Origin: an uncultured Flavobacteriales bacterium
Lineage (GTDB): Bacteria; Pseudomonadota; Alphaproteobacteria; UBA8366; CAVOAK01
DNA length: 27,740 bases
Assembly (NCBI GenBank): GCA_964501745.1
Contig: CAZCVU010000001.1
Span: 1-27,740 of the forward strand
Direction: 5' to 3'
The notes under the pieces are model-generated. The model was not told the DNA's origin. It searched no databases and worked only from the letters and a program-made list of their open reading frames with translations. The translations under genes and the position numbers were made by a program. This document shows positions 4,194 through 18,099 of the stretch, one piece after another; the first letter of the stretch is position 1; each line of letters begins with the position of its first letter.

Positions 4194-4283
4194 GACGTAG
4201 GCCGGCGAACGGCGCTCCTGTGACGGCGAAAAATGTGGCAAAGGTTAGGCCGCCACCGAGCGTCGGCGGCGGCCTAGATGCAA

Positions 4284-4493
4284 TTACTCGACGATTGCGA
4301 GATTTTCAGCAGCGGACTTGCCGTTCTGCCCGGGCACGAGATCATAGGAGACCTTCTGCCCTTCGCGCAGCGTGCTCTCACCGGCGCGTTCGACAGCCGA
4401 AATATGTACGAAGGCATCCTTCGAACCGTCTTCCGGCTGGATAAAGCCATACCCTTTGACGGGGTCAAACCATTTCACTGTTCCAGTAGCCAT
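4284..4493 (-). CDS. cspA: Cold-shock protein
   Basis: MATGTVKWFDPVKGYGFIQPEDGSKDAFVHISAVE (RNP1/RNP2), 69 aa, strong RBS AAAGGAG. Confidence 0.95.
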   Translation of the reverse strand: MATGTVKWFDPVKGYGFIQPEDGSKDAFVHISAVERAGESTLREGQKVSYDLVPGQNGKSAAENLAIVE

Positions 4494-4636
4494 AGCCACT
4501 CCTTTAGCAAAGGATCGGGTGTCGTGCGAGATGCCCGACCCGATCAAAAAACGTCCACAATGTCAGGAGGTAACTCGGCCAGCCGATGAAACGGCCTTCG
4601 TAGTAGACAACGACAAGTGTGTAACGTGCCGCCTAG

Positions 4637-4664
4637 ATATAGACGCCCCACCACGCAAGTCAAG
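4637..4664 (-). promoter_or_regulatory. Probable RpoD promoter of the csp gene
   Basis: Minus strand CTTGAC-N16-CTATAT, close to the rhizobial RpoD consensus CTTGAC-N17-CTATAT. It implies a 5' UTR of ~135-140 nt, as is typical for csp genes. Confidence 0.55.
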
Positions 4665-4762
4665 GTGATTGAAACCGGCGTTTGTGCCCGCGCAACGTGC
4701 CGCGTGCAATGTGCTGCCAAACAGCATCTCGGCGGAGTCTACCAGCGATCCCCCGGCCCGCG

Positions 4763-5983
4763 TCAGGTTGCCGGTTTCTCCAAATGCGCCTGCGCCCGCG
4801 GTACGAGGAATAGCCCGACATAACGCAACGTTTCATCGCTGCTTGCGAGGCAGGCTGCCTTGACGGCAATGACCGTCTTGCCGGCCACTGTCTCGCGCCA
4901 AAACCAGTTATTCAGATCCGTGCTCGAAGCATGTCCGGGTTGTGCCGTCGCCGCCTCGATGCAGAAAGCCCTGAGGTCGTCGCAAGCCAGTTTCAAGACC
5001 TCCACCCGGTCCATATCTTCGCGCGGGCTAGGTGCTGGATCGTCGCCCAGAAATGAACTCACGAACGGTACAATCTGATCGATTTCGAGACCGCTGATCC
5101 CGACCGCTGTCCGCTTGCGCTCCCTAAGCCCAAGGTCGTACCAAGTCGCCAGCTGCGCCACTTCGGCTTCAAGCGCCGTCGCAAGGTCGTCTCCGGTGTC
5201 GGCAATCTCGTCCGGTGGCGCGAGGTTGATGGGACAGGCCCAGCCGGTGATATCCTCTGCCTCCGGCGCATCGTCCGGAAAGTCGGTGTGGACCGGCCCG
5301 CTGTCGGCTTCGAGAAGCTCGAGACAGGAGATCAAAACGCGTTTCTGAAACTCCGGCTTATCGGGCGCGCCAAGCGGCCGGCCAAGTTCAAACGGCACCC
5401 ACAGCGCCCGCGGCGGTGCGATTTTCTCGCTGTGCTCACGAATCAGGCTGATCAGCGTTGTCGGCAGCCCCTCTTCTTCGAAAAAGACGGCAAGCCCGCC
5501 CACGGCGAGCGTACAGAACGGTCAGACCGGGACCAGAAGTACGGCGTTGACCCGGTCCTCCTTGAGCAGTCCGGCAAGTTCACGTGCTTTCGGCTCCAGT
5601 TTGTCCGGCCGGGTTGCGCCCATGAAGGAGTAGTGGAAGTCTGCGACCGAACCGATGACGCCGTCGGCCGCCAGTTCAGCCAGCCGGTCTATGGGAAATA
5701 TGACGTTCAGATCCTGCTGATAGCCGGTGCGGTCGAAGTTAGAGGATACATGGGCCATCAGCAGGTCGCCGGCCACGGTGTCACCGGGGATCACCCGGTA
5801 TTCGTCCGCGCCGAATGGAAATGGCCGGTCGCCGCGGCAAAGCAAGCCGGCCGACGAGACGATCGCCACCCGGCGCTCGCTCAATGGTGGGCCTGAAACC
5901 CATGGATTGCTCTCGTATTGCGGGATCTCTACAGCAAGCAACGCATCTCGTGCGCTTTCCGGAAGATCGCTCAAGCGGACCAT
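4763..5983 (-). CDS. PrdB-like (glycine/sarcosine/betaine/D-proline reductase selenoprotein B family) selenoprotein, 406 aa, Sec at UGA 5522-5524, with extra C-terminal domain
   Basis: The 153-aa and 246-aa ORFs are in one frame joined by ...VLLVPV-TGA-PFCTLAVGGLAVFFEEEGLPT. VAIVSSAG, H-VSSNFD, DLNVIFPIDRLAEL, HYSFMG and the downstream PRALWVPFELGRPLG are collinear with clostridial PrdB (UxxC). A SECIS-like hairpin follows, and tRNA-Sec is adjacent. Confidence 0.9.
5494..5510 (-). promoter_or_regulatory. Candidate bacterial SECIS element
   Basis: GCTCGCC-GTG-GGCGGGC (7-bp stem with one G-U pair, 3-nt loop starting with G) begins 11 nt after the UGA, matching the bSECIS spacing and apical-G rule. 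Confidence 0.7.
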
Positions 5984-6101
5984 AGAGACAGCCTTAAACG
6001 TGTGCCGGCGACATCAAGCCAGCATGACATTACGCAGCAACGTATCGGCAAGCCGCCACCACGGTCAACCACCGGCGGATGCCGCGGCCAGAGCCGGAGC
6101 A

Positions 6102-6196
6102 TGGCGGAAGAGAGTGGGAGTCGAACCCACCAGGCACGCTTGGCGCCCCTCGCCGGGTTTGAAGTCCGGGCGCCCCACCGGAGACGATTCCCTTCC
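6102..6196 (-). tRNA. selC: tRNA-Sec (anticodon UCA), 95 nt
   Basis: GGAAGGGA...TCTCTTCC-GCCA 8-bp acceptor stem, anticodon loop CTTCAAA, long variable arm, GGTTCGACTCC T-arm, encoded CCA. Confidence 0.97.
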
Positions 6197-6340
6197 CTCA
6201 CGCTCGAGAATTAGGCACGTCACGACAACTTGCCTGAGCAATCTTCTCCAATCAACCGACGACCAATCCGATATATTAGTGCCCCATCGCTTCGCGTCTA
6301 AAAATACGCTGTCGTACCGCAACAGAAGGGTCATCAAACG

Positions 6341-6757
6341 ATGGAAGATGAACTGGAGGGATTGATTTCACACCTATCTCTCGGAACGAACGATTTCGAG
6401 CGTGCCGCAGCATTTTACGACGCTGTGCTGGCAACGCTCGGTTTGAAGAGGCTCATTGAGGTTCCGAGCGCCAGCGCCATTGCCTATGGACGGCAGCACC
6501 CTCAGTTTTGGATTCAGAAACCCGGCGACGGTCGACCAGCAACGGTCGGTAACGGCAGTCACATTGGCTTCATTGCCATGTCGCAGGAGGCCGTAATCGA
6601 GTTTCACAAGGCTGGCATTGCCGCCGGGGCGACAGACGACGGCGCGCCAGGACCGCGCCCACAATATGGCGAACCCTATTTTGGCTGTTTTCTCCGCGAC
6701 CTCGACGGCCACAAGATTGAAGCGGCATTTTGGGATTTGACGAAGTCGCAGTCCTAG
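6341..6757 (+). CDS. VOC/glyoxalase family protein
   Basis: ISHLSLGTNDFERAAAFYDAVL, GNGSHIGF, DDGAPGPRPQYG-PYFGCFLRDLDGHKIEA. Confidence 0.9.
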   Translation: MEDELEGLISHLSLGTNDFERAAAFYDAVLATLGLKRLIEVPSASAIAYGRQHPQFWIQKPGDGRPATVGNGSHIGFIAMSQEAVIEFHKAGIAAGATDDGAPGPRPQYGEPYFGCFLRDLDGHKIEAAFWDLTKSQS

Positions 6758-6762
6758 CGGGT

Positions 6763-8724
6763 CTAAGAACTTGAGCTCAGCGCATCGCTTTCGGCGGCCT
6801 GCTTTGGGTCAAACACGGAGTCGGCTGGCTTCAGGACTTGGCGTTCGTTGCCGACGCGGCGGGTCAGTCCAAGCCGATCGAAATGCTCGAGGATCTGAAT
6901 GGCCAAATTTCGCCCGATGCCGGCACGATCGCTGAAACTGCGAACAGAGAACGTCCGCGCGGGCGCAGCGCCGGCCAGAGTGCTCGCCACCGATGCCAGC
7001 GCACGCGCCCGCTCCGCCAGCAGGTAGCGATTTTCCGCAATCTCCACCGCGAGTCCGCGCTGCGCCGCCTGTCGCAGAGACTTCTTGATATCGGGCGTCT
7101 CGATAGACAGGCTGGTTGCAAGCTCGCCGATTCCCGGTGCGTGAGGATCAGCGGCCCGAAGCGCGGCCAGGACCCGCCGCGAAACAGCGGTTTCGGTATC
7201 CGAGCCTTGCGGCCTAAACCCGAGCATATGAACCCGACTACCACTACACGCGATGCGACCCCCGGCGACCAACTTCTCGAAGATCGCTGAACCCACGGAA
7301 TTGGGTAACCTCAGTTTCAGGCCGCTCCGCACCTCCGATTGGGATGGCCCCGGGCTGGCCGGCGATGACCGGTGGTAGCGTTCGATTACCTCGGCTACCG
7401 CTGCGCATAGACCGCTCCAGTGGGCTTCAGAATAGGCGTGACTTTCATCTTCGGTTCCAGCGACTTTAGCAGCGGCTTCCTGCAAAACCGATACGGTCTC
7501 TGCCGCCGTAAGATTTCGCGCGCTGGCAAACTCAACCAACGGAACGCCCGATGGCGATTGCTGCAGCAGACAGCGGAGCGATCTTACCGTGTCCGTGGTC
7601 TCCATCGCTGCCAGCAGTTTGAGCCGCTCTGGCCTCGCCCTGCCGCGTGCGGGTGCAAATGGATCGATCACCTTGCCGCCAGCAAGCGTGTGCCGTGCCG
7701 CCTGATCCCGCAGAATGAGACGGTCTCCCCACAGCGCATGTACGGGCCGGTCGAGCGTGAGACGGGCAAACCCGCTAGCGCCAGGAGCGATGGCATCCTG
7801 TACGAGACCGCCGACCCGCCCGGCAACGTCGGCGTTACCGAGATGAATATGCACGGGCAGGCCTCGCCTCGTCACCGGCTTCTCGCCGGACAGCACCCGC
7901 AGGCGCACATCCAGCCTCGATACCAGCCCGGCCGATGCGTCAGCGAGCAGCCAATCGCCACGGCGTATGCGAACCCGCTTTAGCCCGGTGCCGGAGATGT
8001 TGAGCGCGCACCTCTCGCCTTCGCCAGCGATCCTTACTTCGCGGTTTTGCGCATGAATGCCACGCACCCGAACGGTGGTACTACCCGGCGACAGCGCCAG
8101 CCGGTCGCCGACCTGAACCTGACCAGAATGGACCGTACCGGTAACAATTTGCCCAGCGCCCTTGAGTGTAAAGACGCGGTCGATCGCCAGCCGGAAATGC
8201 CCACCCGGCACCAGGGCCGTCGTCTCGCCCGCTATGGCCGCCAAGTGATCGGCAAGTGCGGCGATCCCCTCACCCGTCAGGGCCGATACCGGGAAGATCG
8301 CCGCCTCTTTCAGGCTCGTCGGCGACACTATTGCCTCAACGGTCCGCCTGACCTCGGCAAGGCGCGTACGGCTCGCGCGGTCGATCTTGGTCAAGGCAAC
8401 CGAACCACGTGCTACCCCGAGCAGATCGAGGATCGCCAGATGCTCAATGGTCTGCGGCATCGGCCCATCATCGGCGGCGACGACCAGCAAAGCGCAATCG
8501 ACTCCGATAACGCCGGCCAGCATGTTGCGGATGAAACGCTCGTGCCCCGGCACGTCGACGAAGCCCAGAGATCGTCCATCCGCAGACGACAGATAAGCAA
8601 ATCCCAAGTCGATGGACAGGCCGCGCTGCTTCTCTTCCGGCAGCCGGTCGGCATCGACCCCCGTCAGCGCCTTCACGAGAGCCGTCTTGCCGTGATCGAT
8701 ATGGCCTGCCGTGGCGACGATCAT
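6763..8724 (-). CDS. selB: Selenocysteine-specific translation elongation factor
   Basis: MIVATAGHIDHGKT, DLGFAY, DVPGHERFIRNM, TKID, and C-terminal winged-helix R--AGIGRNLAIQILEHFDRLGLTRRVG. Confidence 0.97.
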   Translation of the reverse strand: MIVATAGHIDHGKTALVKALTGVDADRLPEEKQRGLSIDLGFAYLSSADGRSLGFVDVPGHERFIRNMLAGVIGVDCALLVVAADDGPMPQTIEHLAILDLLGVARGSVALTKIDRASRTRLAEVRRTVEAIVSPTSLKEAAIFPVSALTGEGIAALADHLAAIAGETTALVPGGHFRLAIDRVFTLKGAGQIVTGTVHSGQVQVGDRLALSPGSTTVRVRGIHAQNREVRIAGEGERCALNISGTGLKRVRIRRGDWLLADASAGLVSRLDVRLRVLSGEKPVTRRGLPVHIHLGNADVAGRVGGLVQDAIAPGASGFARLTLDRPVHALWGDRLILRDQAARHTLAGGKVIDPFAPARGRARPERLKLLAAMETTDTVRSLRCLLQQSPSGVPLVEFASARNLTAAETVSVLQEAAAKVAGTEDESHAYSEAHWSGLCAAVAEVIERYHRSSPASPGPSQSEVRSGLKLRLPNSVGSAIFEKLVAGGRIACSGSRVHMLGFRPQGSDTETAVSRRVLAALRAADPHAPGIGELATSLSIETPDIKKSLRQAAQRGLAVEIAENRYLLAERARALASVASTLAGAAPARTFSVRSFSDRAGIGRNLAIQILEHFDRLGLTRRVGNERQVLKPADSVFDPKQAAESDALSSSS

Positions 8725-10163
8725 GTTGTGGCTTCGTCCGGCAGCGAGAGCTGATCGAACTGCGCCAGCAGCAACTCCTCATCGTCGACGCAACGCAGGT
8801 CAAACAGCAATGCGCCCTTTGCGATGCGGCCGATCACCGGGACTGACAGACCGCGAAAAGCTTCGGACAGCCGGGCCAACACCTTACCTCCGCCGCGCCT
8901 GCCAGCATGCGGCCGGATCGCCAGCGCAACGCTGGGCAATCGTTCTACGGGCAGTGAACCGCTGCCAACCTGGCCCATGCAATCGGCAATCGTCACGCTG
9001 GCAATATCCTGCAGCTTTTGCGATAGCAGCGGCGCCAGCCGTCGGGCCATGGCGGCAAGCTCATCAGGTGGCCGCGTCAGATGGATCAGAACCGGCAGGC
9101 GCTCGGCCAACCGGTCCGGATCGGCGTAAAGCCGCAAAACCGCACCAAGAGCAGCGATCGTCAGCTTGTCGACCCGCAAGGCGCGTTTCATCGGATTGCG
9201 GTTGATCCTGGCGACGAGATCGGCGCGGCCGGCGATGATACCGGCCTGCGGACCGCCGAGCAGCTTATCACCACTGAAGGTTACGAGATCCGCGCCAGCC
9301 GACAGGGTTTCCCGGACCGTCGGCTCGTGCGGCAATCCAAAGGGTTCGAGATCGACCAGCGAACCGCTTCCCAGGTCGACGACCAATGGCAATTCCTTCT
9401 CGTCGGCCAGCTCGGCCAACTTCGCGAACGGCACGCTGGCGCTGAAACCTGCCACCACGTAGTTGCTGGTATGAACCTTCATCAGGAGCGAGCTTTGCGC
9501 GCGAATGGCGGCGGCATAATCCTCGAGGTGAGTCCGGTTGGTGGTTCCCACCTCAACGAGCTTGCAGCCGGCGCGGGCCATGATATCGGGCATCCGGAAC
9601 GAACCGCCGATCTCGATCAATTCGCCACGGGAAACCAGAACTTCCTTGCGCAGCGCCAAACTGTTGAGCACAAGCAGAACCGCCGCCGCATTGTTGTTCA
9701 CAACCGTCACCGCTTCGGCGCCAGTCAGTCCGCGGAGCAAACCTTCCAGGTGATCGTCGCGGGAGCCGCGACGCCCCGATACCAGATCGTATTCCAAATC
9801 CGAAGCGCCGTGCGCCGCTTCGGCCATCGCCGTCACAGCGACATCTGGCAACGGCGAGCGACCGAGATTGGTATGGATAACTATGCCGGTCAGGTTGAAG
9901 ACACGTCTTGGTGCGATGCGCGCCGAAGCGTTTAGATATCGCTCGACCGGATCGAGCAGATCATCATGCGATATTGCCTCGGACAGACCGGCTGCCAAAT
10001 GCGCTCGGCGAACGCGTGCGAACTCATCGCGGACGGCCTCCTTCACTCTCGCCCGGCCATATCTGGTAATCAGCGTCTTGGTTCGCGCCAGGGACAGGAT
10101 GCGGTCCACCGAGGGCAGCTTAACCCTCGCTGTCGTCTGCTTGTTCAAAACGGACCTGGACAT
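8721..10163 (-). CDS. selA: L-seryl-tRNA(Sec) selenium transferase
   Basis: VFNLTGIVIHTNLGRS, VVNNNAAAVLL, SRGELIEIGGSFR, EVGTTNRTH, PLP lysine in FSGDKLLGGPQAG. Overlaps selB by 4 bp (ATGA). Confidence 0.97.
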   Translation of the reverse strand: MSRSVLNKQTTARVKLPSVDRILSLARTKTLITRYGRARVKEAVRDEFARVRRAHLAAGLSEAISHDDLLDPVERYLNASARIAPRRVFNLTGIVIHTNLGRSPLPDVAVTAMAEAAHGASDLEYDLVSGRRGSRDDHLEGLLRGLTGAEAVTVVNNNAAAVLLVLNSLALRKEVLVSRGELIEIGGSFRMPDIMARAGCKLVEVGTTNRTHLEDYAAAIRAQSSLLMKVHTSNYVVAGFSASVPFAKLAELADEKELPLVVDLGSGSLVDLEPFGLPHEPTVRETLSAGADLVTFSGDKLLGGPQAGIIAGRADLVARINRNPMKRALRVDKLTIAALGAVLRLYADPDRLAERLPVLIHLTRPPDELAAMARRLAPLLSQKLQDIASVTIADCMGQVGSGSLPVERLPSVALAIRPHAGRRGGGKVLARLSEAFRGLSVPVIGRIAKGALLFDLRCVDDEELLLAQFDQLSLPDEATT

Positions 10164-16917: not shown

Positions 16918-17157
16918 CGGTCATCGTGTTCACTTCATGAACGAATGGATCGAATTCAGAACTATCCCAGGTTCCCATTGCTTGTAAGCAATGGCATGCG
17001 GCTGCGAGTTTGGCTAGCCGAGAGGACGGTGTGAAATGCGACCAGAGTTCCGGTCGGAAACCTTTTCCTCGGACGGTTAGGTGACTCTTAGGCGAGGCTG
17101 CCAGAGCAGTCGTCTCGGCCCCACGAGCCCGGCTTACATCTGCACCCGGTGGAGAGT

Positions 17158-18099
17158 ATGAATACACTCACAGAGCGTCTCGACAAAATCACTTTTATCC
17201 CGCCCGAATATCGCAGCGTCACGCCGCCATGCCCGAGGAGCGTGAAGATCGAGTTGACGGCGATCTGCGACTTCAAGTGCTTCTTCTGTGCCACCGGCGC
17301 CAAATTGCGCAAGACGGGAAGCATCGACTGGGACCTGTATACCCGGGTCTTGCAGGAAATGCGCGAAGCCGGGGTCGAAGAGATTGGCATGTTCTACCTT
17401 GGCGAATCCTTCCTGTACAAGAAGCTCCCGGACGCCATTGCCTACGCCAGAGAGCTGTGATTTCCCTACATTTTCCTGACAACAAACGGCCGCATGGCAA
17501 CGCCGGAGCGGGTTCGCGCCTGTATGGAAGCTGGATTGGACAGCCTCAAGTATTCCTTCAACTCGGCGGATGCCGAGCAGTGCCTGGAGATCACGCAAGT
17601 CGATGCCTTCGATACGATTGTCGAAAACATCAAGAGCGCCCGGCGGGTGCGCGATGAGGTCGAGGCCGAGACCGGCCATCACTGCGGACTCTATGCGTCC
17701 TCAATCCAGTATGACGGCGAGCAACTGGACCGCATGGCCGCGGCTGTCGAGGTTATCGAACCCTTTGTTGATCAGCACTACTGGCTGCCGCTGTACGGCC
17801 AGGCCGGTTTCACTTCGGGGGCACGAGGCACCGTGCCGGTCGCCGGCAACATCGGAAGGATCGGGGCCCTACGCGATCCGCTGCCCTGCTGGGCCGTGTT
17901 CACGGAGGGCCACATCACCTATGACGGCCAGCTCGCCGCCTGCTGTTTCGACCATGACGGTCGGTTCGGCATGGGCGACCTGAATGAAGTTTCCTTCCTC
18001 GAGGCCTGGCGCAGCCAGAAATTCCAGGACCTGCGCAAGGCCAACTTAGCCAAGGACGTCAGCGGCACGCCCTGCGAGCACTGCATCGCCTATTCCTAA
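17158..18099 (+). pseudogene. Radical SAM protein with SPASM/twitch domain, interrupted by an in-frame TGA at 17458-17460
   Basis: KIELTAICDFKCFFC (CxxxCxxC), GMFYLGES, then EL-TGA-FPYIFLTTNG in the same frame, and a C-terminal LPC...ACCFD...GDL...PCEHC. RBS GGAGAG before ATG 17158. Confidence 0.85.

Follow-up and report, generated by a model that had tools for sequence, protein, structure and literature searches.

A PrdB-like selenoprotein gene beside tRNA-Sec, selB, and selA in an alphaproteobacterial genome, and its proposed role as a self-contained reductase lacking a PrdA-type subunit

A reading frame that is interrupted by UGA raises two questions at once, namely whether its halves belong to a single gene in which the UGA is read as selenocysteine (Sec) and, if so, what the resulting protein does. 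Both arise at 4763..5983 (-) of the window, by which we mean the whole 27,740-nucleotide stretch analyzed here (contig CAZCVU010000001.1 of assembly GCA_964501745.1, positions 1 to 27,740 of the forward strand), in the metagenome-assembled genome (MAG) of an alphaproteobacterium. A sequence-only reading of this stretch had proposed a cryptic selenoprotein with a UxxC motif, resembling PrdB of D-proline reductase. Taking all of the evidence below into account, we consider it rather probable that the locus encodes one 44-kDa selenoprotein that works as a self-contained selenol/thiol reductase without a PrdA-type subunit, that is not a D-proline reductase, and that is the main client of the Sec machinery encoded beside it. 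The features on which the first part of this argument depends are as follows:

4763..5983 (-): PrdB-like selenoprotein gene, 406 codons plus a TGA stop (4765..4763), ATG at 5983, predicted from a read-through translation that is collinear with full-length Cys homologues
5522..5524 (-): in-frame UGA, codon 154, the predicted Sec of U-P-F-C; TGA in all homologous matches and Cys in the full-length Cys forms
5513..5515 (-): Cys157, the partner Cys of UxxC, invariant in 52 of 52 aligned sequences and in 102 of 102 Sec forms
5494..5510 (-): predicted bacterial Sec insertion sequence (bSECIS) hairpin with a 7-bp stem, apical loop GUG, and an 11-nt spacer after the UGA, judged from covariation, from its fold, and from its weakness or absence in Cys forms

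The UGA lies in the context VPV-U-PFC at 5524..5522, in frame as had been read from the letters, and in the read-through translation the frame stays open beyond it up to the stop codon. We collected homologous loci from relatives and from one-genome-per-species collections, covering Alphaproteobacteria, Desulfobacterota, Chloroflexota/Dehalococcoidia, and Burkholderiales, and found TGA at this column in all 111 tblastn matches (100 loci, four phyla). Protein relatives, obtained by a word-indexed search of 5.8 billion proteins, are of two kinds: proteins of about 245 residues that comprise the post-UGA part only, and full-length proteins of 369–418 residues, all of which align a Cys with the UGA. 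The pairing of Sec with Cys that the sequence-only reading had set as its own test is thus observed at this column. The Cys forms are encoded by one continuous gene (395–418 aa) in genomes that do not use Sec, which speaks for the two halves being parts of one gene, again as anticipated. So was the fate of such a gene under automatic annotation, in that the C-terminal half of the window gene is already recorded in databases as a separate 246-aa protein; the C-terminal halves of Sec forms are labeled “hypothetical protein”, and the Joint Genome Institute (JGI) label for the Cys forms is “D-proline reductase (dithiol) PrdB”. A promoter and terminator scan of 4250-6800 gave nothing above chance level.

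In the case of the hairpin, which the earlier reading had also placed 11 nt after the UGA, the element is present at 5510..5494 (GCUCGCC-GUG-GGCGGGC) with a loop that fits the GUN pattern. Folded alone, the window hairpin is as stable as shuffled sequence (z = -0.07), and its support is therefore comparative. Across 37 diverse sequences, pairing reaches 90.7% in a conserved register, against 30–56% in controls in which the register was slid, and double changes occur at four of the seven pairs, with 17 compensatory cells versus 3.2 in shuffles (none of 500 shuffles reaches 17). As a control against protein-coding constraint, we placed the same register on five Cys-form genes, where the hairpin is weak or absent (-6.8 to +4.0 kcal/mol, 3–6 pairs), compared with a median of -11.4 kcal/mol in 105 Sec forms, 91 of which form 6–7 pairs. 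Alignment and hairpin together indicate that 5983..4763 (-) is a single 406-codon gene in which UGA154 is read as Sec, and they show that SelB can decode this codon as Sec with the guidance of a hairpin located 11 nt after it.

The second part of the argument concerns the Sec machinery, most of which is encoded directly upstream of the gene in the window:

6102..6196 (-): tRNA-Sec (selC), anticodon UCA, found by ARAGORN and matching Rfam RF01852 (71.7 bits, gathering score 47), 118 nt upstream of the ATG
6341-6757 (+): gene of the glyoxalase/bleomycin-resistance family, on the opposite strand between selB and tRNA-Sec
6763..8724 (-): selB, Sec-specific elongation factor (Pfam GTP_EFTU, Beta-barrel_SelB, SelB-wing_2, and SelB-wing_3)
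8721..10163 (-): selA, selenocysteine synthase (Pfam SelA, 519.7 bits)

The tRNA-Sec on the same strand had been noticed beforehand, and both programs confirm it. Such an arrangement is found elsewhere in the family: at 11 of 101 loci tRNA-Sec is inside the flanks, and in two other MAGs it is directly upstream, as in the window. We searched the genome for selD and for further selenoproteins, as the sequence-only reading had advised. A selD gene is present on another contig (C194, 429 bits), such that selA, selB, selC, and selD are all accounted for. No in-frame stop interrupts the 12 molybdopterin-oxidoreductase, nine AhpC-TSA, and four CMD matches of this genome, and no SelW-like gene was found in it, so that the sole Sec candidates found are themselves PrdB-like. 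These are the window gene, a short form, and a second long form that is cut off. The short paralogue (contig C48, L003:1360-2238 (+)) encodes 292 residues with the motif LVPI-U-PVC and no C-terminal helical domain, and is 27–28% identical to the window protein; the long-form paralogue (contig C652:3-458 (-)) is 53% identical over residues 1–152, and its contig ends two codons before the Sec position. These were targeted searches of the families named, and it is from them that the main-client conclusion is drawn.

Comparison within the genus provides insight into what happens to the gene when the machinery decays. One relative (G004) has the same module, running from selA to the PrdB-like gene. 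In a second (G001), selA and selB run off the contig end, and the absence of the PrdB-like gene there is uninformative for this reason. In a sister species (G002, C11:26500-37500), the flanking csp gene is intact at 95% identity, but of the PrdB-like gene only residues 174–406 remain, spread over two frames; selA is broken into three pieces, and neither selB nor tRNA-Sec is left. A further relative (G003, 98% complete) contains none of selA, selD, and the PrdB-like gene. This joint loss of the gene with selA, selB, and tRNA-Sec supports the suggestion, first made from the window alone, that the protein is a main client of the adjacent sel genes, and the PrdB-like gene appears to be the principal reason that Sec machinery is kept in this lineage.

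A second reading frame of the window with an in-frame TGA was considered as a selenoprotein candidate and rejected. This is a gene of the radical S-adenosylmethionine (SAM)/SPASM type at 17149-18099 (+), with TGA at 17458-17460 (AYAREL-U-FPYIFLTTNG). No internal stop is present in two orthologues of 82% and 56% identity, the latter of which has Gly at the TGA column, and the TGA is a nonsense mutation or an assembly error (GGA to TGA).

We now turn to what kind of protein the gene encodes, for which the relevant features are:

5279..5887 (-): PrdB/GrdB-like alpha/beta domain, about residues 33–235, predicted from TIGR04483 (residues 33–225), Pfam GRDB (residues 35–151), and AlphaFold Database (AFDB) fold clusters
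5234..5236 (-): Cys250, in an A-C-P motif of a flexible inter-domain linker, from conservation and from a predicted local distance difference test (pLDDT) score of 58–67 for the linker
4781..5194 (-): family-specific C-terminal helical domain, residues 264–401, from predicted secondary structure and conservation

The PrdB-like identity proposed by the sequence-only reading is upheld by profile searches. Pfam GRDB (PF07355) matches residues 35–151 with 32.2 bits, above its gathering cutoff of 22, and TIGR04483, the NCBIfam PrdB equivalog, matches with an E-value of 3.3e-26, aligning residues 33–225 with positions 26–219 of its 238-position model. The TIGR04483 score of 92.2 bits is below the equivalog cutoff of 300, as is that of TIGR01918, for the selenoprotein B subfamily, below its own (35.1 bits against 65.45). 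On these profiles, the protein is PrdB-like but, as far as sequence can tell, not a D-proline reductase.

The partner subunits lead to the same point. The earlier reading had seen no PrdA or GrdE partner in the window, and the PrdA/GrdE family (PF09338) has no match in the window, in the rest of this MAG (87.6% complete), or in five relatives that are 90–100% complete and carry three to eight copies of the PrdB-like family each. As a positive control, two genomes that also carry the PrdB-like family, one from Desulfobacterales and one from Dehalococcoidia, were searched in the same way and gave GrdE-type matches (E-values of 1e-83 and 2e-80), so the search does detect such genes where they are present. 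When all open reading frames (ORFs) within 8 kb on each side of 80 loci were clustered, no cluster occurred at more than nine loci, the recurrent neighbors being an ATP-binding cassette (ABC) exporter (nine), a Pyr_redox_2-SelD fusion (eight), a family III CoA-transferase (seven), a VTT-Pyr_redox_2 protein (six), and selB and selA (five each). Multi-copy genomes provided 20 paralogue loci, whose neighborhoods are likewise unrelated to one another. Without a PF09338 gene, a recurrent neighbor, or profile similarity to GrdE (described below), the PrdB-like protein looks, as judged from gene content, stand-alone, with neither a pyruvoyl subunit nor a conserved operon partner. We note separately that the Pyr_redox_2-SelD fusion, an 813-aa protein that joins a pyridine-nucleotide disulfide oxidoreductase domain to SelD, lies about 1 kb from the PrdB-like gene at its eight loci (for example, L090:5473-7914 (+)).

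Using an alignment of 52 sequences, we modeled the full chain with AlphaFold2 (AF2). The model has a pLDDT of 91.8 and a predicted template modeling (pTM) score of 0.92, and shows two domains packed together. Sec154 and Cys157 lie at the N-terminal start of helix 155–170, and a low-confidence linker (residues 240–262) separates the alpha/beta and helical domains. The long extra domain noted from the sequence corresponds to this C-terminal helical domain. Conserved polar residues are found in both parts of the protein, with D84, N93, R192, and Q213 in the alpha/beta domain and, among the conserved residues of the C-terminal domain, E274, R291, D336, Y341, E343, W360, and T365. At position 250, in the linker, Cys is present in 101 of 102 Sec forms and in 47 of the 52 aligned sequences overall, with Ser in three. 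In structure searches, the alpha/beta domain matches AlphaFold DB fold clusters that bear the names glycine reductase, selenoprotein B, or PrdB; Foldseek gave no PDB match at E <= 0.001, VIA-align gave generic Rossmann-like PDB matches only (Z <= 8.7), a search of the Swiss-Prot AFDB models gave a partial GrdG match only, and a sequence-profile search of the PDB found nothing. For the C-terminal domain, the ESM Atlas returned only fragments of its own family, and among these structure and profile searches the domain has no relative outside the family. We also considered whether it is a fused PrdA/GrdE module and rejected this, as an hhalign comparison of the family profile with a GrdE-type protein yielded a probability of 0.18% and left the C-terminal domain untouched.

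By analogy with PrdB, GrdB, and other UxxC enzymes, a catalytic cycle for the self-contained reductase can be outlined. The Sec154 selenolate would attack a substrate atom, and Cys157 would then resolve the adduct to form an Se-S bond, which could in turn be re-reduced by a cellular dithiol or a disulfide reductase, perhaps via Cys250 of the linker. Conserved polar residues from the two domains would make up the substrate pocket and stand in for the PrdA-type subunit. C-N or C-X cleavage, the chemistry suggested for this PrdB-like protein on first reading, was an overstatement and is purely inference.

The main alternative, which we regard as possible although clearly less likely than the self-contained reductase, is that the protein does not cleave a metabolite at all but is a general redox protein for thiol-disulfide exchange or peroxide detoxification, of the thioredoxin, glutaredoxin, or peroxiredoxin kind. 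The position of UxxC at a helix N-terminus in the AF2 model is consistent with this, as is the absence of a conserved operon partner, which is typical of housekeeping redox proteins. Class-I disulfide reductases are, moreover, occasional neighbors (the VTT-Pyr_redox_2 protein at six of 80 loci and, next to a short form, a gene resembling glutathione reductase), and the PrdB family is abundant in oxic surface-ocean metagenomes (PMC2398784). However, the fold is not thioredoxin-like, and D84, N93, R192, Q213, E274, D336, W360, and T365 are invariant away from UxxC, several of them being common to GrdB. Such invariant polar and charged residues point to a specific small-molecule pocket, and the presence of up to nine paralogues in one genome fits diversification of substrates better than a housekeeping role.

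A more elaborate version of the reductase, which we hold to be unlikely, is that the C-terminal domain and Cys250 together replace the PrdA/GrdE subunit and make the protein a self-sufficient reductase of one chain. In one form, Cys250 would complete an Se/S relay of three residues to thioredoxin; in the other, Cys250 would be the site of a self-cleavage that generates a pyruvoyl group, modeled on the Cys of PrdA and GrdE at which the pyruvoyl group is formed. If either form were true, the protein would represent a new enzyme class behind a very abundant family of ocean selenoproteins.

Less likely again, and in our view improbable, is that the protein is the selenoprotein subunit of a conventional Prd or Grd complex, with the genes for its pyruvoyl and electron-transfer partners located at other sites of the genome. 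Its homology to PrdB and GrdB and the incompleteness of the MAG (87.6%) are compatible with a dispersed complex, and the Desulfobacterales and Dehalococcoidia MAGs do carry the family and GrdE-type genes at distant loci. However, the Dehalococcoidia GrdE-type genes are flanked by canonical GrdB-type selenoprotein genes of their own, a PF09338 search that works in these control genomes finds nothing in the window genome or in the five more complete relatives, and the scores of the window protein are far below both the PrdB equivalog and the ‘various_sel_PB’ cutoffs.

The association with sel genes could instead be taken to mean that the protein has a role in selenium metabolism itself, such as the delivery or recycling of selenide for SelD. 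In line with this are the 11 of 101 loci with tRNA-Sec in their flanks, the SelD fusion and the selB and selA genes among the recurrent neighbors, and the joint decay of the gene and sel genes in the sister species. This is largely refuted by four alphaproteobacterial genomes with Cys forms, three of them 100% complete, that have no selD, so that the family works in cells without selenium use and its function is independent of selenium metabolism. In addition, about 90% of loci are not near sel genes, and genes for client selenoproteins are commonly linked to sel genes anyway; we therefore rate this explanation as very improbable. Scarcely credible, finally, is the view that the UGA is a true stop separating 153-aa and 246-aa products of two genes or a pseudogene, since the split annotation by gene callers and the unremarkable stability of the isolated hairpin are set against a TGA conserved at exactly this codon in four phyla, its pairing with Cys, hairpin covariation in TGA forms only, adjoining Sec machinery, and an AF2 model that puts the pre-UGA strand and the post-UGA helix in one domain.

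Returning to the self-contained reductase as main Sec client, several points weigh against it. The cycle outlined above is borrowed from PrdB and GrdB, where a pyruvoyl partner activates the substrate, and the same chemistry may fail when there is no such partner. Cys250, the candidate route for re-reduction, is missing in five of the 52 aligned sequences. The window protein has Leu at the conserved R159 (5507-5509) and Cys at Y341 (4961-4963), a combination seen in three of 102 rows, all from this genus, and this lineage may therefore differ from the rest of the family; we note that R159L also alters a position of the SECIS stem, where U-G replaces G-C. The MAG is in 700 contigs at 87.6% completeness and may therefore lack a partner gene or a further selenoprotein. 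A genome-wide scan of coding potential across TGA was insensitive, giving the known gene a low rank and failing to recover the short paralogue, a first such heuristic having been too noisy. A literature search for functional work on the family without PrdA returned nothing.

The family to which the gene belongs is large: it has 276 representatives at 50% identity (E <= 1e-30), the set of species-representative genomes contains at least 558 of its loci, and of 300 genomes sampled evenly from the class, 22 carry it, 18 of these with TGA. In two sister families of the same order (G026, G023, G034, G038, G039, and others), a single genome can contain as many as nine PrdB-like matches, almost all of which have one in-frame TGA; tandem pairs of long forms are among them (for example, L116:7001-9432). 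Genomes with nine copies hold an unusually large single-family selenoproteome for Alphaproteobacteria.

In practical terms, annotation of such loci should merge both ORFs and should not apply the label D-proline reductase. The family is among the most abundant selenoproteins of ocean metagenomes, yet it goes under a borrowed and probably wrong name. Its function is a worthwhile experimental target. As the gene and the sel genes were lost together in the sister species, this gene seems to be the reason that the Sec machinery is kept, and identification of its substrate would thus explain the need of many aerobic marine bacteria for selenium.

It remains to compare the protein with the systems from which its name derives. 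The first is PrdB itself, the 26-kDa selenoprotein subunit of D-proline reductase in Clostridium sticklandii and Clostridioides difficile (Kabisch et al. 1999, cited in PMC1088965; TIGR04483), for which a 2026 review describes the clostridial enzyme only (PMC13188914). Both proteins have a UxxC motif with Sec at the equivalent position. The window protein differs in its length of 406 residues, with a C-terminal helical domain of 170 residues, in that no PrdA-type partner was found in its genome and none recurs beside the family in 80 loci, and in its host, which is an alphaproteobacterium and not a Stickland fermenter.

In the case of GrdB, GrdF, and GrdH of the glycine, sarcosine, and betaine reductases (PF07355, TIGR01918), the alpha/beta domain is shared, aligning over residues 34–192 of the window protein with 22–27% identity over 160–190 residues. 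Comparison with the Dehalococcoidia grd cluster shows D91, N93, P97, Sec, and T158 in common, along with the Arg found at position 159 in most family members. The extra domain, however, is N-terminal in GrdB and C-terminal in the window protein, and no GrdE-type gene was found in the window genome (GrdA, GrdC, and GrdD were not searched for). As an observation in its own right, the canonical GrdB-type genes of the Dehalococcoidia MAG (L138:42-533 (-) and L137:3495-3947 (+)) read ST-U-GTSTRSG, with Ser instead of Cys at Sec+3.

The third comparison is with the “PrdB” family of the marine surveys, with which the window gene agrees by description (Table 2 of PMC2398784) in its assignment to pfam07355, its UxxC Sec motif, the existence of both Sec and Cys homologues, and its SECIS element; no difference between the two is known. 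The Sargasso Sea survey of 2005 ranked “proline reductase PrdB”, with its UxxC motif, as the third most abundant selenoprotein family, with 42 genes (PMC1088965), and the Global Ocean Sampling (GOS) survey of 2008 counted 235 Sec and 110 Cys PrdB sequences (PMC2398784); a “proline reductase” is also listed for Anaeromyxobacter and Geobacter (PMC1794560). To call the gene cryptic, as the sequence-only reading did, was thus an overstatement, given that the family has stood in selenoproteome surveys since 2005 (PMC1088965, PMC2398784). The surveyed family is abundant in non-fermenting marine bacteria, and the relatives of the window gene come from the same kinds of organisms. The surveys took over the name and function of clostridial PrdB, leaving the missing PrdA and the extra domain unremarked. 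The window gene is a further member of this catalogued, uncharacterized selenoprotein family, to which the window adds a clean module of selA, selB, selC, and client gene and, in the sister species, a natural case of their joint loss.

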